A DNA stretch of 53,087 bases. Origin: a virus. Taxonomy: Duplodnaviria > Caudoviricetes. Position 1 is the first letter of the stretch. Each line of letters begins with the position of its first letter. Positions 25,877 to 49,330 of the stretch are shown piece by piece. The notes beneath the pieces are model-generated. The model worked only from the letters and a program-made list of their open reading frames with translations, did no database searches and was not told where the DNA came from. The DNA lies in the IMG/VR virus record IMGVR_UViG_3300025876_000027, positions 1 through 53,087 of that record, one strand, 5' to 3'. The position numbers were made by a program, and so were the translations under genes.

Positions 25877-28800
25877 ATGGAAGAATTAGAAGAAATTGTA
25901 CAAAAAATGATGGATGAAAATACTCCTGAAGAAGAAATCAAAAAGTACATTAAAGATTACAAAGAGGGAAAGTCAAACGGTGTTGTAGCAATGGATGCGA
26001 CTGTAACACCAGAACAGGAAGCGTCCGAAAATATGGAATTACAATCGGAAAATATTTCTTTGGAATCACAAGAGCGTGAAAAAAGCCCAAATGGCTTATT
26101 AATTAATATAGAAAAATCTATAAAAGGAGCTAGAGAATTATCTTTAAAAAAACAAGAGTCTGAAGTTATTTCTAATTTTAATGATGTAAATAAAATTTTA
26201 AATTTAAATTTTGAAGGAGAAATTGTTGAATCAACTTCTGTTTCTACTCAAGAAATAAATGAAAACGCAAAATCCGCAAGTATTGGAAAAGCTTTAGATG
26301 ATGCTACTAAATTAAGTTTTGAAGAAAAACAATTAGCTATTTCACAAGCCGAAAATTTTGTAAATAATAAATCTACAAAATCTGTAAAAGTTAAAAAATT
26401 TCCTAACAATCCTGTTAGTGTTTTTATAAATAAACAGATTCCAAACGATGAATGGGTTGATTTAAATAAAAATGCAAAAACAAAAGTTTTTAATAATTTA
26501 AAAAAAGAATACCCAAGTTTTACACAAAAAGATTTTGATGAAAACTTAAATACGTATAATGAAGAAATACTTACTGAAATGGTAAGTATAAAAAATAAAA
26601 TAAATTTAAGAAAAGAAAGAGATAATAAAATAATAAACGTTATAGACACTTTTGATTTTTCAATGTCCTTAACAGATGCTCAAGAAAAATTAATAAAATA
26701 CAAAGAAAAAGAAAATAAAAAACTAGAAAAAAATATACAAAATTCTAGTGATTTTATGAATAACGCTGGCTCATATTTAACTCAAATAAATAACACTATA
26801 AAAAAGCTTGCTGGCACTAAATATGAAACTCAAGAACAAGCTAATAGAGCTAGAAAATTAGTTGACTCTTTACAATTAAAATTTAAAGAAACTCAAGAGG
26901 CTTCTTCAAAAAAATATCTTCAAGCAATGGATGATATAGAGACTTCAAATACAGCTTTGTCAGATTTAAATATTTTAACAAGAAATTATAATCCAATAAC
27001 TAATTTTGTTCAATCATTAAAAGCAAAAGGAGCTGGCCAGTTTGCCATAGGTGGTCTTAGGCTTTATGAAACTATTGTTAATCTTCCTGTTGAAATAGGT
27101 GAACTTTTAAACGTAAACTCAGCTTCTGATATATATATGAATAGCATGTTAGAAAGACCTGGCTCTTTCCAAGGAGTACCTAATGCTGTGACTACTGAAA
27201 AAAGTATAAAATTGATAAAAGAATGGCAAGAGGGTATATATAAAGAAATGCCATTGCCGCAAGATTTTGAAGATTTAAAAACACCTGAAGAATATGGTAG
27301 GTATATATCAGATCTAGCTGGTAGCCAACTTTTAAATATAGCTTCTGTTATGGTTTTAAAAAAAGCTGCACTACCTGTTTTAGGGTTAAATTCTTCTGGT
27401 GCTAAACTCCAACAGTTTGCTGAAGAACAAGAAAAATTAGACGCTTGGAAAAAAAATAAAATAGGACCTAAACCTGAAAGTGGAGATGTTAGTTTTGCAC
27501 AAAAATATATAACAGCAATTGGTTTTGGTGTTCTTGAAGGAGTAGGTTCAAAGCTACAATTAAAATTATATAAAGATTCACTTAGAGGATTTAGAGGTGC
27601 TTTAAAAAACCCTAAACTATCAGTAGGTATTAGGCAAGGCTTTACTAATTCACTAAAGTCAACTTTAAGTACGGCTAAAGATTTTGGTTTAGAAGGTCTT
27701 GAAGAAGGTTTTATAGTACAATATGGAAATAATTTTCTTGATAGGTTTGTTTTAGGAAAAAATATAAATTTACTTGATGGAGTTAAAAAAGCTGCAATTG
27801 ATGGTGTTTTAATAAGTCCTTTTTATAAAGCACCAGGGGTTTTAACGCCTATAGTTTCTATATTTCAATCTGTAGATTCTAATCAAAAAATAAGTCAATG
27901 GAAAACTGAAATAGATAAAATACAAAATTCATTGGTTGAAAATGCCAATATGGATTCTGAATTAATTCAAGTTGCTGAAAAAAGAATTTTTTCTTTAGTA
28001 AGTAAAATATCTGGGGAAATAAATAAAACAATGGATAGAACACTAAACATGTCTGAAGAAGACGTGATTAGTTTAGGTCAAATAGATGCGGAAATTTTTA
28101 ATTTAAGAAAACAACAGCAAAAAGCAGAGCAAAATGATTTATCTTTTAAAGGAGAAAATCCTTTATTAAAATCAATAGAAACAGAAGCAAACAATCTTTT
28201 ATTTGATAAAAATAATATATTAGAACCTTATATAAAACAAGATAATATTAAAAAAATAAAAGAGGTTCAAGAATTAAGTTCTAAAGCTAAAATTGACGAT
28301 AATTCTAATTTTTACGATACTAAAGAGGGTTTTATTAAAAGAGCCAAAGAATTAGGCATTGAAGTTACTGGAGAAGAAGACGCTCTTATAGATCCACAAA
28401 CTGGAGAAGTATTAATAAACGTAGACGTTGCTTCTGAAACAGGTGCTGTTTCTGCTCAACTTCACGAATATCTTCATAGAATATTAAAATCATCTTTTGT
28501 AAATGATTCTAAATCATTAAAGAAAATTAAAGATGAATTTAGAAATATTTTAAGTAAAAAACAATTAGCAATAGTTGAACAAAGAATTAATAAAAATTAT
28601 AGGTTTAATGAAGATGGTTCTGAAAAAAATGAATTAGAATACGCTGAAGAATACTTCACGGCTTTTTCTGACGCTGTTTTTAAAGATGAAATAAAATGGT
28701 CTGATAATTTAACAGAGTCGTTTTTATCATTTGGAAAAAAAATATTAGAACCAATTAGAAAAATACTTGGTAATGAAAAATTAGAATTTACTTCAGGAAG

Positions 28801-31800
28801 AGATGTTTATGATTTTATAATAGACTATAATAAAAACATTAAAAAAGGAGAAATAACCAAAAGAGGTGAAACTTTAATAGAAAAAGGAAAAAACATTAAT
28901 AAAAGTCAAGACGCTGTTAAACCTGTTGTTGCTTCTAAATCTAAAATAAAAGAAGCTTACGATGAGCTACAACAAATAGACGAGACAGAAGCTAACTTTA
29001 CTCTTGATTCAAAAAAACAAAAAGCATTAACAGATAGAAAAAATGAATTATTAAAAATACTTCAAGATGAAAATATATATGAGGAGTTACGTCAAATAGA
29101 TGAATTTGAAGCTGACTTTAATCCAAATGAATTTTCTAAAAATAGAAAAAAAGAACTTTTAGATTTAATAAAAAAAGAAGAAACAAAAGAAATAGTTAAA
29201 TTTTCTAAAACTAAAAAAGGTGTAAGTGCCTCAGAAGAAGTTCAAAGATTATTTAACGAAAAACCTAGAGACTGGGAGGTTGAAGTCATAAAACAAATGA
29301 GACCTATAACAGCTAAGCTTGTAGAAAGAAGAAGAGACGTTACTGGTTTTGATAGACAAATTTTAATTGATGAAATAGAAACAGGTGAAAGAGGTATTTT
29401 AGATTTAATAAGAAGTTATGATCCTAAAAAGAACGATTCTTTAGCTGCTTATATAAATACTTTTTTAAGCTTTAGAGCTCAAGAAGGTTCTAAACGTGTT
29501 TTAAAAGAAGTGTTTGAATCAGACGTCACCGAAGAAAGAAGTGTTGCAGCTCAAGAAGATGACATATCTATAGAAGATGCTGTAGATGAATCATTTAAAC
29601 CTACAATAGAGCAAAAATCAAAATTAAGAAGAGAAATAAAATTACCAGATGAGCAAGTTGAAAAAGTCAGAGAAGCAGTTAGAAAAACATTTGGAACAAG
29701 GTTACCTGACGTTAACTCGCCTGAATTCAAAAAAGCTCTTAGAAAAGCTTATGACACAGAGTTATTTAAAGAATTAAAAACAAATGTTTTTAAAACTAGA
29801 GATGAATACAGAAGTTTTTTAAGAGAAAACTGGAAAGCTTTATACGATGCAATACCTCAAGAAACACTTAACCAAAGCTTTGCGCCATTTAGAGAAGAAG
29901 TTTTAGATGAAAGCGGTAAACAAAAAAGAGAAAAAACACCTGAAGGTGAGCGTATATTTAGAAAAAAGAATATAACTAGAGAAGAGTTTTTAGATTATTT
30001 CTTTAATCCAAATGTTGGAGGTTCTACAAGAGGTACTAGAAAAGATGCAATAGTAAGGATGTTAGCTCAAGAACTTGGTTTTGATGCCACAATGGAAACC
30101 ATACAAGAGCCTAAAGTTGCAGAGAAAATAGCATTTGCTAATCCCACTGTTACAGTTCCAATTGCAGGAGTTGTACTTAACAGACCTGATGCAAAATTTA
30201 GTAAATCAAAATTACCAGAAGAATATGGTTGGCAAAAAGATGTCTATAAAATGGAAAGTATTGATGATGTTAAGCCATATATAGATAACTGGAAAGATTT
30301 AATGGAGCTTAAAGGTAAAAATGGTAAAAAAGCATTTAGTTCTAATTTGATAAGTTTTAGCATGCTTATGGGTGCTCCTAGAGCTTATTTAAAGAATATA
30401 GTAAGTATTAAAGAAATAGACAAAGCTGTAGGTAAAAATAACAAAAAAAATATAACTAGTTTACTTAATTATGATAAAAAATTATCAAATATAATTTATG
30501 GTAGTTTTAAAGGTCAAGAAACTGGTAAGGTAAAGCCTTCGCAAACTTTTGGTGGAAATACTAATTCTAAAAAATACAAAGAAAATAAATTAGAAAATTT
30601 ATCATATGTACAAGGTTATAACAAAAGAAACTCTTTACTTTTTGATAAGCTACTAATTGAAATAAATGAATTTTTTAATAGTAAAAATTTTACTGATGCT
30701 GAAATAAAAAAATATGGATCTTCTATTTTATTAATGTTAGAATCAACACAAGCAGAAAGAAATCATGCTTTATCAAACGGTGCTGCTGTTGTAGCTAAGT
30801 TTAATAATAACTATTCTGGTAAGTTAGAATATGAACACGCTGTTCCTAGTAAATACGTTTATGAATATATTTTAGATAATATTTTAGATAAAAATAAAAG
30901 TTTTGAAGATGCTTTAAAAAATATAAAACAAAATTTTACAGTTATTGTCATACCTGCAAATATTGCAAAAATAGTAGATACGGTATATAAATATACGATG
31001 CCAAAAAACTTTGACATAAATAAACCTGGAGATTGGATTAAAAGGTATATAAATCCTGAGGTTAAAGCAGCTTTAAAAGAAGAAGGAATTGATCCAAATT
31101 GGTTTGAAAACAATATGGAAATGCTTAACAGCAAAGATAAAAATTTGTTTAACCCGTCTAAAGAAGTGAAAGCAAGCAAAACTAAAGCTTCTTTTTTTAA
31201 TAAAATGATAGAAATAAAAACAGGTATACCTGCTAAGCGAAAAATAAGTGCAGTTACAGCAGCTAAAATGGGTGAAGAAAACAGAAAAATAGATTTCTTT
31301 ATTTCTCCATCTGCTGAAGACTTCATGGGATTACTTTATAAAACTATAGGTAAGGGCAAAGTAGGTGATGATCAAAAAAAGTGGATTAACGAAAATATAA
31401 TGAAGCCTTATGCTATAGCTATAGAGAAAATTACAATAGCAAGAAATGTTGTAACAAATAGTTTTCAAGCCATAACAAAAGATTTAAATATAACAGAGAA
31501 AGATTTAAAAAAGAAAATACCTAATAGTGTTTTTACTCAAGAAGATGCTGTAAGAGTTTATATATGGGCAAAGCAAGGATTAGAAATACCAGGTATATTA
31601 AAGAAAGAACAAAAAGAACTTGTTAGTTATGTTAATGGTAAAAGCAATTTAGTTAAGCTTGCCAACAACGTTATAAAAATAAATAACGTAGCTTTTAAAA
31701 CACCAACTGATTCATGGCAGGTTGGTAACTTAGGAACTGATCTTTTAGAAAGTTTAAACACAACTCGTAGAGCAGAGTTTTTAGAAGAGTGGCAAAATAA

Positions 31801-33163
31801 TGTTGATGATATTTTTTCTGAAAACAACCTTAATAAGCTTGAAGCTGCTTTTGGTAAACCTTACAGATTAGCTGTTGAAAATTCTTTACAAAGAATGAAA
31901 ACAGGTAAAAACAGAAACGTTGGAAGAGATAACACAACAAATAGAGTTGTTGATTGGACCAATGGTGCTACAGGTACAATAATGTTTTTTAATTCTAGAT
32001 CTGCTATACTTCAAACTATATCAGCCGTAAACTTCATAAACTTTGGTGATAATAATATAATAGCAGCAGGTAAAGCTTTTGCAAATCAAAAACAATATTG
32101 GTCAGATGTAACAATGTTGTTTAATTCAGAGTTTCTAGTAAATAGAAGAGATGGTTTAAAAATGAGTGTAAATGAAGCAGATATTGCTGACGTAGCTAGA
32201 CAAAAAGGCGTTAAAGGTTTAATAGCAAGATTATTAAAACTTGGTTTTACGCCTACGCAAGTAGCTGATAGTATTGCTATAGCAACTGGTGGTGCTACTT
32301 TTTATAGAAATAGATACAATGCTTTAGTAAAAGGTGGTATGAGCAATACTGATGCACAAGCTCAAGCAATGAGAGATTTTAGAGAAACAGCTGAAGAGTC
32401 TCAACAGTCAAGCAGACCTGATAAAATTAGCCAACAACAAGCTAGTGAATTAGGGCGTATAATACTTGCTTTTGCTAACACACCATCTCAGTATGCAAGA
32501 ATAATTAAAAAAGCCGCCCTGGATCTTAAGAATCGCCGAGGCAGTGACAAAGAAAACATATCTAAAATACTTTATTACACAGTAGCTCAAAATCTTTTAT
32601 TTAATGCGCTTCAAAACGCTATGTTTGCTGTTGCGTTTGGAGATGTAGATGATGAAGATAAACTTAAAAAAGAAATAAGAGTTGCAAATGGCATGGCTGA
32701 TTCTTTATTAAGAGGTATGGGTATTCAAGGAGCTATACTTTCTGTAGTTAAAAACGCTGCAATAAGAGTATATAAACAAGAATATAAAGAAATACCTATG
32801 GAATTATTAAGGATAAGTCCACCTATTTCTTCAAAGTTTAGAAAAGTTAAAAGAGCAACTGATATAATGAGCTGGGATGGAGATGAAATATTTGAGCAAG
32901 GTTTAACAATAGATAATCCAGCTATTGAAATAACAAGCAAAACTGTTGAAGCATTAACAAACTTACCTTTAGACAGAGCTATTAAAAAAATAACAAATCT
33001 TAAAGATGCTACAGATAGTGATTTAGAATTTTATCAAAGATTAGCTTTAACAGGTGGTTGGAATAAATGGGAATTAGGTATACAGGATAAGAAAAAAGAA
33101 AAACCTGTATCATCTAATGTAAATACAGGAAATATAATAGAAAAAGGAGAAATAATAGAATGA
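25877..33163 (+). CDS. Giant polyvalent putative ejection protein (zincin + sigma-like + HNH-like domains)
   Basis: HEYLH at aa 863; GILDLIRSYDPKKNDSLAAYI at aa ~1173; EHAVP at aa ~1653; podovirus ejection-protein position. Confidence 0.75.
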   Translation: MEELEEIVQKMMDENTPEEEIKKYIKDYKEGKSNGVVAMDATVTPEQEASENMELQSENISLESQEREKSPNGLLINIEKSIKGARELSLKKQESEVISNFNDVNKILNLNFEGEIVESTSVSTQEINENAKSASIGKALDDATKLSFEEKQLAISQAENFVNNKSTKSVKVKKFPNNPVSVFINKQIPNDEWVDLNKNAKTKVFNNLKKEYPSFTQKDFDENLNTYNEEILTEMVSIKNKINLRKERDNKIINVIDTFDFSMSLTDAQEKLIKYKEKENKKLEKNIQNSSDFMNNAGSYLTQINNTIKKLAGTKYETQEQANRARKLVDSLQLKFKETQEASSKKYLQAMDDIETSNTALSDLNILTRNYNPITNFVQSLKAKGAGQFAIGGLRLYETIVNLPVEIGELLNVNSASDIYMNSMLERPGSFQGVPNAVTTEKSIKLIKEWQEGIYKEMPLPQDFEDLKTPEEYGRYISDLAGSQLLNIASVMVLKKAALPVLGLNSSGAKLQQFAEEQEKLDAWKKNKIGPKPESGDVSFAQKYITAIGFGVLEGVGSKLQLKLYKDSLRGFRGALKNPKLSVGIRQGFTNSLKSTLSTAKDFGLEGLEEGFIVQYGNNFLDRFVLGKNINLLDGVKKAAIDGVLISPFYKAPGVLTPIVSIFQSVDSNQKISQWKTEIDKIQNSLVENANMDSELIQVAEKRIFSLVSKISGEINKTMDRTLNMSEEDVISLGQIDAEIFNLRKQQQKAEQNDLSFKGENPLLKSIETEANNLLFDKNNILEPYIKQDNIKKIKEVQELSSKAKIDDNSNFYDTKEGFIKRAKELGIEVTGEEDALIDPQTGEVLINVDVASETGAVSAQLHEYLHRILKSSFVNDSKSLKKIKDEFRNILSKKQLAIVEQRINKNYRFNEDGSEKNELEYAEEYFTAFSDAVFKDEIKWSDNLTESFLSFGKKILEPIRKILGNEKLEFTSGRDVYDFIIDYNKNIKKGEITKRGETLIEKGKNINKSQDAVKPVVASKSKIKEAYDELQQIDETEANFTLDSKKQKALTDRKNELLKILQDENIYEELRQIDEFEADFNPNEFSKNRKKELLDLIKKEETKEIVKFSKTKKGVSASEEVQRLFNEKPRDWEVEVIKQMRPITAKLVERRRDVTGFDRQILIDEIETGERGILDLIRSYDPKKNDSLAAYINTFLSFRAQEGSKRVLKEVFESDVTEERSVAAQEDDISIEDAVDESFKPTIEQKSKLRREIKLPDEQVEKVREAVRKTFGTRLPDVNSPEFKKALRKAYDTELFKELKTNVFKTRDEYRSFLRENWKALYDAIPQETLNQSFAPFREEVLDESGKQKREKTPEGERIFRKKNITREEFLDYFFNPNVGGSTRGTRKDAIVRMLAQELGFDATMETIQEPKVAEKIAFANPTVTVPIAGVVLNRPDAKFSKSKLPEEYGWQKDVYKMESIDDVKPYIDNWKDLMELKGKNGKKAFSSNLISFSMLMGAPRAYLKNIVSIKEIDKAVGKNNKKNITSLLNYDKKLSNIIYGSFKGQETGKVKPSQTFGGNTNSKKYKENKLENLSYVQGYNKRNSLLFDKLLIEINEFFNSKNFTDAEIKKYGSSILLMLESTQAERNHALSNGAAVVAKFNNNYSGKLEYEHAVPSKYVYEYILDNILDKNKSFEDALKNIKQNFTVIVIPANIAKIVDTVYKYTMPKNFDINKPGDWIKRYINPEVKAALKEEGIDPNWFENNMEMLNSKDKNLFNPSKEVKASKTKASFFNKMIEIKTGIPAKRKISAVTAAKMGEENRKIDFFISPSAEDFMGLLYKTIGKGKVGDDQKKWINENIMKPYAIAIEKITIARNVVTNSFQAITKDLNITEKDLKKKIPNSVFTQEDAVRVYIWAKQGLEIPGILKKEQKELVSYVNGKSNLVKLANNVIKINNVAFKTPTDSWQVGNLGTDLLESLNTTRRAEFLEEWQNNVDDIFSENNLNKLEAAFGKPYRLAVENSLQRMKTGKNRNVGRDNTTNRVVDWTNGATGTIMFFNSRSAILQTISAVNFINFGDNNIIAAGKAFANQKQYWSDVTMLFNSEFLVNRRDGLKMSVNEADIADVARQKGVKGLIARLLKLGFTPTQVADSIAIATGGATFYRNRYNALVKGGMSNTDAQAQAMRDFRETAEESQQSSRPDKISQQQASELGRIILAFANTPSQYARIIKKAALDLKNRRGSDKENISKILYYTVAQNLLFNALQNAMFAVAFGDVDDEDKLKKEIRVANGMADSLLRGMGIQGAILSVVKNAAIRVYKQEYKEIPMELLRISPPISSKFRKVKRATDIMSWDGDEIFEQGLTIDNPAIEITSKTVEALTNLPLDRAIKKITNLKDATDSDLEFYQRLALTGGWNKWELGIQDKKKEKPVSSNVNTGNIIEKGEIIE

Positions 33164-46783: not shown

Positions 46784-46957
46784 ATCGTGTAGCATTTCAT
46801 AAAGACGCTTGAGTTCTTTAGGGTCTACATTATTAAAATCATGTTCATCAAGTTGCCAAGGAAGCTTTAAGTTCCTGGTAATGATTACTTTAACAGAGTT
46901 TTTTATTTCAGTAGCAGTTTTCTCTGCTATTAATTCTACTATTTCAGAATTTGTCAT
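46772..46957 (-). CDS. Hypothetical protein
   Basis: 61-aa ORF. Confidence 0.65.
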   Translation of the reverse strand: MTNSEIVELIAEKTATEIKNSVKVIITRNLKLPWQLDEHDFNNVDPKELKRLYEMLHDRTI

Positions 46958-46976
46958 GCGCTTATTATTTTAAATT

Positions 46977-47131
46977 TAGTAACCAGTGAAGGAATCGAAC
47001 CTTCATACTCGTCAGTAGCATTTGCGGGTGTAAGGGGCCCAGTTCTTACTGTTGATCGCTTTTTATTTTGGGTAATGATAATAAACCTCTAATACCACGA
47101 TCTAGACTTTGTACCGCAACCTTGCCTGGTT
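46977..47131 (-). ncRNA. tRNA-like RNA 1 (no D arm, large insert)
   Basis: Acceptor AACCAG/CTGGTT, T arm GAAGG-TTCGATT-CCTTC, stem TTGCGG/CCGCAA, 3' ACTA. Confidence 0.7.
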
Positions 47132-47132
47132 G

Positions 47133-47280
47133 ATATGTGTTCATCGAGCCGTTTCTCCACAACTTTTACGTTGCTCCAGGATATTGCCTTCATCACACAC
47201 GTTTTAAACCTACCACCATCTACTCATCGCTTAACTCCCTATGATAAAAATTCCCTGAGCAGTGTATAGGTGGTAAGTTT
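47133..47280 (-). ncRNA. Two further structured non-coding modules
   Basis: 12-bp stem AAACTTACCACC/GGTGGTAGGTTT and a GTGT-closed module; no convincing ORF. Confidence 0.45.
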
Positions 47281-47445
47281 TTATTCTTTATAATTTTTAT
47301 ACAATAGATATTCAGATATAACTTTATCAAACATTTCTTGTAAGTCTTTAACACTGTAACTGAAATTACTTTTTCTCATCCAGTATGCAATGCTTTCTAA
47401 AGTATCTATTGCTAATTCCTTGTGTTCATCTCTTCTACTTGCCAT
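47281..47445 (-). CDS. 54-aa hypothetical protein (not in ORF track)
   Basis: MASRRDEHKELAI...YKNYKE. Confidence 0.6.
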   Translation of the reverse strand: MASRRDEHKELAIDTLESIAYWMRKSNFSYSVKDLQEMFDKVISEYLLYKNYKE

Positions 47446-47569
47446 CTTTCAATTGTTTTATAGTATAATTCAAACCTTTAATAGTTTCTTTAGCTTCTAA
47501 AAGCTCTCGCTTAAGAGCAAAAATTCTTACGATCAGATGCTCACGGGTAACACCATCAATGCCTGTCAT
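47435..47569 (-). CDS. 44-aa coiled-coil peptide (not in ORF track)
   Basis: MTGIDGVTREHLIV...KQLKDGK, overlapping both neighbours. Confidence 0.6.
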   Translation of the reverse strand: MTGIDGVTREHLIVRIFALKRELLEAKETIKGLNYTIKQLKDGK

Positions 47570-47850
47570 TTAAGTACAACTGTTAAGTTATTATCTTCAA
47601 ACTTAAGGCCAATAACTTCGTATTCGTTGTCATCACTTTCAAGCTTAGTTAAAAACTTATTGAGATCAAAAGACCTGTAGTGTATAACTTCTCTAGTTGC
47701 TGCAACATGCTTAGCATCTTCAGGCTTACACGTCCACACTTGGCCTACGTGCTCATCTTTCCAGAATACCTGGTCAGTAAACTTGTTACCACGCTTACGT
47801 GGCCACAGTGACTGTTCTTTTTCTAGTTGTTTTTCTTTAGTTAATGCCAT
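47566..47850 (-). CDS. Hypothetical early protein
   Basis: 94 aa, directly behind a class I promoter. Confidence 0.75.
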   Translation of the reverse strand: MALTKEKQLEKEQSLWPRKRGNKFTDQVFWKDEHVGQVWTCKPEDAKHVAATREVIHYRSFDLNKFLTKLESDDNEYEVIGLKFEDNNLTVVLK

Positions 47851-47875
47851 AGTTGTTATTTTTTATATTCATATT

Positions 47876-47909
47876 CATTATCCAAAACACCTCGTATTAT
47901 GATTGTAAC
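47876..47909 (-). promoter_or_regulatory. Class I promoter motif, copy 3
   Basis: CATTATCCA-aaacacc-TCGTATT-atga-TTGTAAC. Confidence 0.8.
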
Positions 47910-47910
47910 A

Positions 47911-48243
47911 TTATGTGTTCATTAATTCTTCAGTTACTCTACTAGTAATGTGCCTTCTGTAGTTTGAAAACAGTATTGGTAGTAACTCCATTAGTCTTTC
48001 ATCGTCTAAATGCCTAAGCGTATCATCTAACCACTCTTGGGTTATAAGCTTGTTACCTAAACACCAGTCGTAGATAAGATTTGAGATGTCGTAGTGCTCG
48101 TCTGACTCCCAATAGTCATTAAGAGGTAATAACTTGTCAAGCTCTCTGTATGCGAGTGATAGTATTTGTCGTTGAGTTATATTTTTCCAACCAACTTTTA
48201 AGAATACTTTTAATAGTTTATCAAAATCTTTATTCGTTTTCAT
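47911..48243 (-). CDS. Hypothetical early protein
   Basis: 110-aa ORF. Confidence 0.7.
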   Translation of the reverse strand: MKTNKDFDKLLKVFLKVGWKNITQRQILSLAYRELDKLLPLNDYWESDEHYDISNLIYDWCLGNKLITQEWLDDTLRHLDDERLMELLPILFSNYRRHITSRVTEELMNT

Positions 48244-48469
48244 ATCTCTTGTATAAATCGTTAAGTAAATTAATTAAAGTCTTAGTCTTGTCTTCTGCCC
48301 AGTGTTCGTGGAAGAACTCTTTGCTTACTAAGTTTGTATTTATAACATAGTCTGCTATAGTCTTTTCAGCAACCTCATTGGCGTATGAACCTTTATAGTA
48401 ACTGTACACTATCTGATTGCGAAGCTCAACTAATATATAGTTAAGGATGTCTTTGTCTCTGTCTTTCAT
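48230..48469 (-). CDS. Hypothetical early protein
   Basis: Start moved to MKDRD; the track's N-terminal extension lies in the tRNA-like RNA. Confidence 0.7.
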   Translation of the reverse strand: MKDRDKDILNYILVELRNQIVYSYYKGSYANEVAEKTIADYVINTNLVSKEFFHEHWAEDKTKTLINLLNDLYKRYENE

Positions 48470-48480
48470 ATCATTTATTT

Positions 48481-48628
48481 TAGTGGCGTGGTGGGAATCG
48501 AACCCAGCGCTTGAGTTTAGCAATCATCGAGCCGTTTATTGCATCCCGCTAAGGAATTACCGCTTTAATCTCGCATGGGATTTCGTAAGACGTCTATCCC
48601 GAACCTTCTCAAGTAACCATTCACGCCG
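48481..48628 (-). ncRNA. tRNA/tmRNA-TLD-like RNA 2 (no D arm, large insert)
   Basis: GGCGTG/CACGCC acceptor, CTTGAG/CTCAAG stem, TGGG-TTCGATT-CCCA T arm, 3' ACTA. Confidence 0.7.
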
Positions 48629-48638
48629 TTAACATGTG

Positions 48639-48821
48639 TTAATCATTATTACGCCACTCATTCATGTTTTGCATTATGAATGCTTTTATAATATTATTTA
48701 ACTCAATATCTTGCTCGACTGTTAAGTCGCCTGAGTGTAAGTTATAGTCTTCTACTATAGCTTTCCAGTTAACATAGTTATCTGCTAACATATCCATACT
48801 TGTTTCTTTATTACCCTTCAT
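48639..48821 (-). CDS. Hypothetical early protein
   Basis: 60-aa coupled ORF. Confidence 0.65.
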   Translation of the reverse strand: MKGNKETSMDMLADNYVNWKAIVEDYNLHSGDLTVEQDIELNNIIKAFIMQNMNEWRNND

Positions 48822-49152
48822 TTTGTATGAGTTTTACTATTGCTTTTTTCATTAATAAATCAATCTCTTGTTGATCAAAGTTTTTGTACACATTAGATAC
48901 CTCTTTCTTTACAAACTCTGTAGAGAACTCTTCCAGTGGTACACCATATGATGAATACAACATCTTTTTATCTACCCACCCGTGTGGATTATTCTTTATA
49001 CTATATACTTTGATTCTTGCAAATGTTTTTGTAAACACTGCTGTTAAGTATTCTGTACTTACTCTGAAGACTTCTGTAGTTTCAGAAGAATCATTGATTG
49101 GCTTGTGATTAGTAGTTGCCATTGTTGGTGGGAAAAAGTCTGTAATTGCCAT
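48811..49152 (-). CDS. Hypothetical early protein
   Basis: 113 aa, behind a class I promoter. Confidence 0.75.
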   Translation of the reverse strand: MAITDFFPPTMATTNHKPINDSSETTEVFRVSTEYLTAVFTKTFARIKVYSIKNNPHGWVDKKMLYSSYGVPLEEFSTEFVKKEVSNVYKNFDQQEIDLLMKKAIVKLIQNEG

Positions 49153-49169
49153 AGTTTATTTGTTTATTA

Positions 49170-49203
49170 TATTATCCAAAACACCTCGTATTTTGATTGT
49201 AAC
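49170..49203 (-). promoter_or_regulatory. Class I promoter motif, copy 4
   Basis: TATTATCCA-aaacacc-TCGTATT-ttga-TTGTAAC. Confidence 0.8.
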
Positions 49204-49219
49204 TTAGTTGACATAGTAA

Positions 49220-49330
49220 TTAAAGTATATATTTACATATTACATATGACACTTGGAAGGCCAAGAGTACTCCTACTATACTAGCTATCAGGTAACTAGC
49301 AATGTTTACTATTTTATCAAATTTATTCAT
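49220..49330 (-). CDS. 36-aa single-TM peptide (not in ORF track)
   Basis: MNKFDKIVNIASYLIASIVGVLLAFQVSYVICKYIL. Confidence 0.6.
   Translation of the reverse strand: MNKFDKIVNIASYLIASIVGVLLAFQVSYVICKYIL

Follow-up and report, generated by a model that had tools for sequence, protein, structure and literature searches.

A family of tmRNA-like RNAs with exchangeable inserts in marine Bacteroidota-type phages, including a derived copy that may act as a non-chargeable tmRNA mimic

Which kind of RNA gene, if any, is formed by a 148-nt stretch of phage DNA that reads as a tRNA lacking its D arm and carries a long insert of several hairpins? The stretch (the element) lies in an IMG/VR virus record of 53,087 bp, estimated to be 83% complete, and the whole of this record is referred to here as the window. 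An earlier note, made from the letters alone, had read the element as a tRNA/tmRNA-like RNA with a multi-hairpin insert in place of the anticodon loop and had likened its topology to the tRNA-like domain (TLD) of tmRNA. The genome encodes GroEL/GroES, a large terminase, a portal protein, ribonucleotide reductase, thymidylate synthase and a primase-helicase, together with Erf, an exonuclease, a sigma factor and a crAss-type muzzle domain. The GroEL and GroES homologues are found at 668-2471, and a 2428-aa protein without a PHROG match is encoded at 25877-33163. The terminase shares 64% identity with an uncultured podovirus record and 36-44% with its counterparts in Flavobacterium 'elemo', Cellulophaga and Tenacibaculum phages, which makes it likely that the host is a marine member of the Bacteroidota. 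A Pfam scan of 58 ORFs found no SmpB and no RNA-handling protein.

The element sits among small ORFs of the same strand, about 4.1 kb upstream of the sigma-factor gene; it begins 10 nt past the stop codon of the upstream ORF (48639-48821, minus strand), and 11 nt separate its end from the ATG (48469) of the downstream ORF. On the minus strand it runs C-GGCGTG / AATGGTTA / CTTGAG / 92-nt insert / CTCAAG / CG / CTGGG-TTCGATT-CCCAC / CACGCC / ACTA, which agrees with the strand and the layout of segments described earlier (Table 1). The position of the D arm is taken up by 8 nt only, the acceptor stem has 6 bp, and a P2 helix of 6 bp closes the 92-nt insert. Thus the insert that had been described is present, and it rides on P2 rather than taking the place of an anticodon loop. 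The CTA trailer is also found downstream of tRNA-Met genes in related phages.

Table 1 Coordinates of the element, its parts and the related RNAs (window positions unless a contig handle is given)
Feature	Location	Strand	Remarks
Whole tmRNA-TLD-like / tRNA-like RNA gene, 148 nt	48481..48628	-	comparative evidence, 13 metagenome contigs
Acceptor stem (P1), 5' strand GGCGTG	48622..48627	-	C48628 faces A48484 (C.A) if a 7th position is counted
D-loop analogue AATGGTTA, without D stem	48614..48621	-	GG corresponds to the family-invariant G12, G13
P2 helix, 5' strand CTTGAG	48608..48613	-	both-sided changes in all 5 modelled P2 pairs family-wide
Insert module H1, hairpin GGGAT...ATCCC	48577..48600	-	recurs in inserts of relatives
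Insert module Y: outer stem GCGA/TTGC, internal loop GATTAAAG / GCTCGATGA, apical hairpin ATTCC/GGGAT	48520..48574	-	
P2 helix, 3' strand CTCAAG	48510..48515	-	R1 match, covariation
T-arm CTGGG-TTCGATT-CCCAC	48491..48507	-	4 bp + C.C mismatch, canonical T-loop
Acceptor stem, 3' strand CACGCC	48485..48490	-	without the U70 of relatives (R1 alignment)
Discriminator A + CTA trailer	48481..48484	-	CCA not encoded
Upstream free-standing hairpin AACATAGGCATGAG...GTACGAGTATGTT	L170, L169, L174, L002; window remnant AACACATGTTAA at 48629-48640		
Free-standing module Y, outer stem GTGTGT/ACACAT	47135-47200	-	3 nt upstream of second tRNA-like RNA
Second tRNA-like RNA, AACCAG-G / CAAGGTTG / ~100-nt multi-hairpin insert / GAAGG-TTCGATT-CCTTC / (A)CTGGTT / A-CTA	46977-47131	-	
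50-nt RNAs	L013 6054-6103; L019 4804-4853		7-bp acceptor stem, 15-nt D-loop-like linker, T-arm; without P2 or anticodon arm
Class B TLD-only tmRNA	L003 6784-6864; also L004, L007, L009, L023, L028, L029		

Standard detectors had been expected to miss the element, and both ARAGORN and Rfam were indeed silent. ARAGORN found no tRNA or tmRNA in the 53-kb window, and Rfam gave no match at the element at gathering scores. When all 4227 Rfam families, a set that should include Y RNA-like and tRNA-Sec models, were searched against 48380-48720 (341 bases) at E<=10, nothing tRNA- or tmRNA-like was obtained; the two matches in this interval, a snoRNA and narK (E 9.4 and 1.7), are at chance level. With introns allowed and a threshold of 80%, ARAGORN proposed a 'tRNA-Val with a 59-nt intron', which was rejected because it ignores the conserved P2, and no call was made above 80%. 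The folding energy of the element is ordinary (z = 0.36; 127 of 200 shuffles fold equally well), and the single-sequence z-scores of 0.36, -0.85 and 0.09 are uninformative either way. When the region and the family members were compared by blastn with 50,697 GenBank phage records, generic T-arm matches were obtained and no family member, and exact window-type 3'-end patterns occurred in IMG/VR only in the L002 contig, a search from which the window's own or near records were possibly excluded.

Relatives were retrieved via the neighbouring sigma factor (31 loci), and an exact 3' pattern added 71 IMG/VR loci. At nine of the 31 sigma-factor loci, an RNA that we named class A occupies the same relative position as the element. 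These nine RNAs have in common a 5' part, GGGCGTG-AAATGGTTAG, and a 3' part, AACGCAGG-TTCGATT-CCTGC-CACGTCC-A-CTA, and their middle sections are wholly different from one another. The family as a whole comprises 79 copies with 63 unique sequences of 71-152 nt from IMG/VR marine phage contigs. Its core, with G3.U70 and A73, is near-invariant, its P2 covaries, and its modular insert, about 20-100 nt long, is hypervariable; the shortest members bear only about 20 nt on P2. ARAGORN calls no family member as tRNA. The phages that carry the family are uncultured, marine and podovirus-like, with relatives among those of Flavobacterium, Cellulophaga and Tenacibaculum.

A covariance model built from related phages had been proposed as a check, and such a model (R1, from 15 short relatives with the window left out) places the element first: its top match in the whole 53-kb window is 48481-48627 on the minus strand (25.3 bits, E 1.6e-4), which spans the full length of the model with 83 nt skipped in P2. 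By this match the element has the features of a tmRNA TLD, namely an acceptor stem, a stemless D-loop with GG, P2 and a T-arm, and it lacks the D arm and anticodon arm of a tRNA cloverleaf. The helices also covary among the relatives. In an alignment of 74 of them (A2), which was fitted to the structure of the model and in which the exact 3' pattern used for 71 loci predetermines the 3' strand of both the acceptor and the T stem (two caveats that leave the P2 helix and the 5' strands unaffected), 94.9% of the cells in the acceptor, P2 and T helices are paired, against 78.5% after shuffling and 40-53% when the partner is slid. Both-sided changes occur in 14 of the 17 pairs, the observed values are reached by none of 500 shuffles, and each of the five modelled P2 pairs is found as at least four standard pair types. 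The element is no isolated oddity; it belongs, as a derived form, to a large family of phage RNAs.

AlaRS needs the G3.U70 pair, which is an established identity rule, and position 3:70 is G.U in 68 of the 74 relatives, followed by an A discriminator. In the R1 alignment, G3 and U70 fall on gaps in the window copy, leaving a 6-bp acceptor stem of G-C and U-A pairs only; in the alternative register the stem has seven positions with C1.A72, and the discriminator is C. The absence of G3-U70 stated in the earlier note accordingly holds for the window copy and not for the family. The absence of a tag ORF, also stated there, stands for the window insert; a tag-like ORF (GCN-started and ending AA, LA, VA or FA) is found in one of the 63 unique members. 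Judged by its sequence, the window copy is a divergent, derived member of the family.

The window type was found in 16 marine metagenome contigs, 13 of them full length. Across these 13, the element is 99.2% identical (1909/1924 bases; 1610/1625 when the 23 bases used for retrieval are excluded), compared with 90.0% (4523/5023) in the downstream coding DNA. All 15 differences are confined to one apical loop of the insert, and the insert is as conserved as the core. In five of the 13 contigs, another copy without G.U lies directly upstream in tandem, one such type having T1-A72. Three distinct variants without G.U are kept, some of them in tandem. L002, the only other IMG/VR contig of this type, has the stem GGTGTG/CACACC, a compensated change relative to the window. 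All 13 contigs also carry an additional free-standing hairpin upstream, of which only a remnant survives in the window; the hairpin, AACATAGGCATGAG...GTACGAGTATGTT, serves as the P2 insert in L056, L086 and L090.

These data bear on the idea that the element has no function and is a tRNA-Ala or tmRNA pseudogene in decay, or else a DNA remnant into which junk hairpins were inserted. The silent detectors, the short acceptor stem, the T-stem mismatch, the lost identity pair and a folding energy at shuffle level would all suit such a relic. However, near-identity across contigs whose neighbouring coding DNA has diverged, together with variants without G.U that are retained in tandem, indicates a selected gene and not a decaying one, and the compensated acceptor change between the window and L002 and the family-wide covariation argue in the same direction. 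We consider a pseudogene very improbable. It is in our judgement highly probable that the element is a real, selected RNA of this family.

With regard to expression, three marine RNA libraries yielded contigs that match 47893-48672 (about 94-95% identity) and span the element and the neighbouring ORFs, although such contigs reveal neither transcript ends, nor strand, nor RNA template; one run of raw reads gave 0 reads on the element. A scan of 46800-49300 for sigma-70 promoters and terminators, which omits Bacteroidota-type promoters, did not differ from shuffles (11 vs 9.9 and 1 vs 0.9).

Since tRNA and tmRNA genes are common sites of integration (PMC4131195, PMC11590407), a phage attachment site carrying part of a host tRNA or tmRNA gene was also considered. 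Against it, the gene is complete in both halves and has a P2 that covaries, and the ORFs scanned include no integrase. The 3' end occurs in no flavobacterial genome, and its 57 matches lie in tRNA-Ala genes from other phyla or on phage-like contigs: ARAGORN identified 43 of the 57 bacterial loci with the shared 3' 22-mer as tRNA-Ala genes, and six belong to the family and lie on phage-like MAG contigs. Only phage-like contigs yielded the window-type 3' end. An attachment site is in our view scarcely credible. One 56-kb contig in a Bacteroidetes MAG bin (L164, G001:C16) carries a class A tandem pair at 53388-53478 and 53545-53650, and the upstream copy encodes a CCA end.

The insert of the element consists of two modules, H1 and Y. 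H1 folds alone at -7 kcal/mol, recurs at 93-96% in the inserts of L018 and of L013-region loci, and is also found in L071. Module Y occurs in 19 unique copies and at least four contexts, with an outer stem that covaries, an invariant internal loop and a variable apical hairpin; it is found inside class A inserts, free-standing before a TLD, and within two larger unannotated intergenic RNAs. Inserts may also be nested, as in L102, which is L014 with the L005 module inside, and L061, which is L050 with the L054 module inside. No insert module matches any Rfam family. As for the three hairpins recognized in the earlier note, GGGAT/ATCCC recurs in L018 and L071, and ATTCC/GGGAT is unchanged in L015, L050, L084 and L095. 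The third, GCAAT/ATTGC, is unsupported: near-identical copies have GCAAG or GAGAG without compensation, and by homology TTGC pairs with GCGA in the outer stem of module Y.

The 13-mer AACGGCTCGATGA is common to the insert of the element and to the module Y copy at 47135-47200. It was considered as a promoter or repeated signal and rejected, since its two copies in the window are equalled by 7 of 100 shuffles and it is part of module Y. A hammerhead or k-turn identity for module Y was dropped by eye, the order of motifs being unfitting and Rfam silent. Module Y is also located inside a larger conserved intergenic sequence (...ataaacagagaaaagagtataagtcaggg...; L065 3782-3877, L070, L069, L156), which may be a further structured RNA.

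This modularity makes it possible, although we hold it unlikely, that the tRNA-like part is a mere carrier providing RNase P/Z processing, CCA and stability, and that H1 and module Y, displayed on P2, are the acting parts, whose target would be a protein or RNA of host or phage, for example a defence sensor. The variation of inserts would then reflect the swapping of functional modules. The assembly of inserts from recurring, nested and recombined modules (L102, L061) agrees with this proposal, as does the occurrence of module Y, with its covarying stem and invariant internal loop, in 19 unique copies inside and outside the tRNA-like scaffold. In the window lineage, moreover, the insert is as conserved as the core, with 15 differences in 1924 bases and all in one apical loop, and the loss of G3.U70 suggests that charging is dispensable. 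Family-wide, however, conservation is much higher in the core than in the inserts, which points to contact of the core with conserved host machinery. The shortest members, with only about 20 nt on P2, and the 50-nt forms without P2 also speak against a mere carrier, as does the lack of an Rfam match for any module. We regard this proposal as the main rival to the mimic described below, and it explains the unchanged 92-nt insert better than a decoy does.

Further tRNA-like RNAs were found in the window and in related phages. The second one in the window (46977-47131) is missed by ARAGORN and Rfam and gives a partial R1 match (17.2 bits, E 0.019); its acceptor and T stems differ from those of the element by compensated changes, and it has a homologue in L002. 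The GenBank relative with the nearest terminase, MW202828.1 (L191), has a tRNA-like gene of 99 nt (532-630) that its annotation leaves out; this gene lies between two annotated CDS and combines a short D arm with a long insert.

Is the family then closer to tmRNA or to tRNA-Ala? RF00023 (tmRNA) is the best Rfam family for class A in 14 of 16 loci tested, with scores of 31.5-42.6 bits against a cut-off of 47, and L014 (34.7 bits) is aligned at both ends of the 374-position model. A second group, class B, of 81-82 nt scores 57.6 bits (L003) against the same cut-off and has G3.U70, A73, a covarying P2 of 7 bp and a conserved 16-nt loop; the segment GGTTTTGAC is common to class B and the full-length tmRNAs of two Bacteroidetes MAGs. 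Class A is present in nine and class B in seven of the 31 sigma-factor loci, both in none, and both lie about 3-5 kb upstream of the sigma-factor gene. Given that they never co-occur and have comparable positions, the two classes appear to be alternatives that fill a single niche. Full-length tmRNAs of 362 nt (86.6-87.6 bits) are present in the cultured relatives Calle_3 and phi38:1, in agreement with the one tmRNA reported for phage Calle (PMC8776804).

The R1 match and the RF00023 scores of the relatives thus bear out the tmRNA-like topology suggested in the earlier note. A clear match to a known family, which that note had named as grounds for abandoning its view, exists for the relatives, as they match Rfam tmRNA (class B above the cut-off), and not for the window copy. 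The shortest family member, on the other hand, scores as tRNA (RF00005, 32 bits, cut-off 29) and not as tmRNA. The acceptor and T-arm of typical members are moreover equal to those of ordinary tRNA-Ala genes, so that the family may descend from tRNA-Ala rather than from tmRNA. The GAC/GGAC junction of the Rfam tmRNA consensus and of class B is missing from class A.

Because G3.U70 and A73 are kept in typical members, the family might supply minimal ribosome-rescue RNAs, which would be charged, enter stalled ribosomes with SmpB, accept the nascent chain and free it without tagging, helping a phage that degrades host mRNA. The window copy, however, is without the G3.U70 pair required by AlaRS, and with no resume codon the ribosome would have no template on which to continue. 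Precedent for such RNAs comes from tag-less tmRNAs, for which this kind of rescue has been proposed and which are conserved in mitochondria (jakobid/oomycete) and Mallomonadaceae plastids (PMC11915505). It also comes from the complete tmRNAs of related cultured phages; complete phage tmRNAs are already in print (PMC9004378, PMC8776804), and for one of them a part in maintaining the hijacked translation machinery has been suggested (PMC9004378). For the element we think this role improbable, and tag-less rescue fits the G.U-bearing relatives better than the window copy.

We therefore favor the reading that the element is a tRNA-processed, non-chargeable tmRNA mimic or decoy, with a probability of roughly 50%, a single figure in which the odds of a real RNA and of the mechanism are blended. 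The mechanism itself, competition for SmpB by the window copy, is proposed by analogy and tentatively, at less than even odds. In this mechanism, the RNA would mimic the tmRNA TLD, with the acceptor stacked on the T-arm, a stemless D-loop and a P2 capped by a phage-specific insert. It would be co-transcribed with the flanking early genes, released by RNase P together with the tRNA 3'-end machinery and completed by CCA addition, and the mature RNA would engage readers of the tmRNA/tRNA elbow, above all SmpB. For typical members, with their G3.U70 and A73, charging by AlaRS would also be possible. The window copy, having lost G3.U70, would be a non-chargeable competitor of host tmRNA, so that trans-translation may be damped or redirected during infection. 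As P2 points away from the tRNA-like body, two extra hairpin modules would be tolerated, and here they are conserved.

A non-chargeable mimic competing for SmpB is favored because the 'TLD only' tmRNA of mycobacteriophage DS6A is the only described phage counterpart. Two articles (PMC4131195, PMC11915505) describe this RNA, for which a role as SmpB decoy has already been proposed in print, and credit to Mao et al. 2009 the finding that a DS6A-like molecule inhibits tmRNA whether chargeable or not, perhaps by titrating SmpB. Several properties of the window copy count against a decoy, namely the lack of an Rfam match, the 6-bp acceptor, the C.C mismatch in the T stem, the absent G3.U70 and a fold whose stability does not exceed that of shuffles. 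The lack of an SmpB gene among the 58 ORFs scanned and the missing GAC/GGAC junction of class A count in the same direction. In addition, a pure decoy would need no conserved 92-nt insert. The observation from which this work started is thus partly confirmed, and its interpretation as a tRNA-scaffolded functional RNA is partly supported.

A broader reading, which we offer as doubtful, is that marine Bacteroidota-type phages maintain a natural tRNA-scaffold display, in which a near-invariant core is combined with combinatorial, exchanged P2 modules that serve as decoys or effectors in phage-host conflict. The core would guarantee processing, stability and access to the translation machinery, and in the window copy, whose alanine identity pair is gone and whose two modules are strongly constrained, the main function would have passed to the modules.

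A full-text search of a limited set of papers found no description of a TLD-only RNA family in marine flavobacterial-type phages, nor of hypervariable modular P2 inserts or of copies without G3.U70. TLD-only tmRNAs were previously a curiosity of one mycobacteriophage and a few organelles, and a whole family of 63 unique sequences can now be placed in abundant uncultured marine phages. The family is invisible to ARAGORN and mostly below the Rfam cut-off. Phage annotation pipelines pass over such genes, which would be recovered with the present covariance model or an improved version of it. Several recurrent RNA modules were also brought to light. Full tmRNAs in cultured relatives, 81-nt TLD-only forms, module-swapped forms and forms without the alanine identity pair make up a gradient, a natural series for asking whether a tmRNA mimic inhibits, replaces or hijacks ribosome rescue in infection.

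Among known systems, the tag-less tmRNAs of DS6A and of organelles resemble the family in having little beyond the TLD and no tag frame, and DS6A is likewise phage-borne. The action proposed for DS6A, competition with host tmRNA, perhaps via SmpB, is also alike. Compared by description, the marine Bacteroidota-type phage family differs from DS6A in its size and in its modular P2 inserts of up to about 100 nt, and the window copy differs further in being without G3.U70 and below every Rfam score. A TLD-only form without a tag was found here as in DS6A, and a closer affinity to tmRNA than to tRNA was seen in 14 of 16 relatives and in class B. The shortest member is closer to tRNA, and the window copy has no Rfam score for either family.

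Full-length tmRNA (RF00023) shares with the family the acceptor stem, the stemless D-loop with GG, P2 and the T-arm. Its P2 bears the whole mRNA-like part, whereas P2 of the phage family bears the variable insert; it measures about 360-400 nt compared with 71-152 nt, and the family is without an mRNA-like domain or tag ORF, with no pseudoknots seen. With tRNA-Ala, typical family members have in common the acceptor GGGCGTG/CACGTCC, G3.U70, A73 and the T-arm. They differ from it in being without a D stem and a 5-bp anticodon arm with a 7-nt loop, and the window copy is also without G3.U70. In the engineered 'tRNA scaffold' used for recombinant RNA in E. coli, a foreign structured RNA replaces the anticodon arm. 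The phage RNAs are like it in holding a structured RNA between intact acceptor and T-arm parts; the scaffold is man-made, whereas the phage arrangement is natural and does without a D arm.
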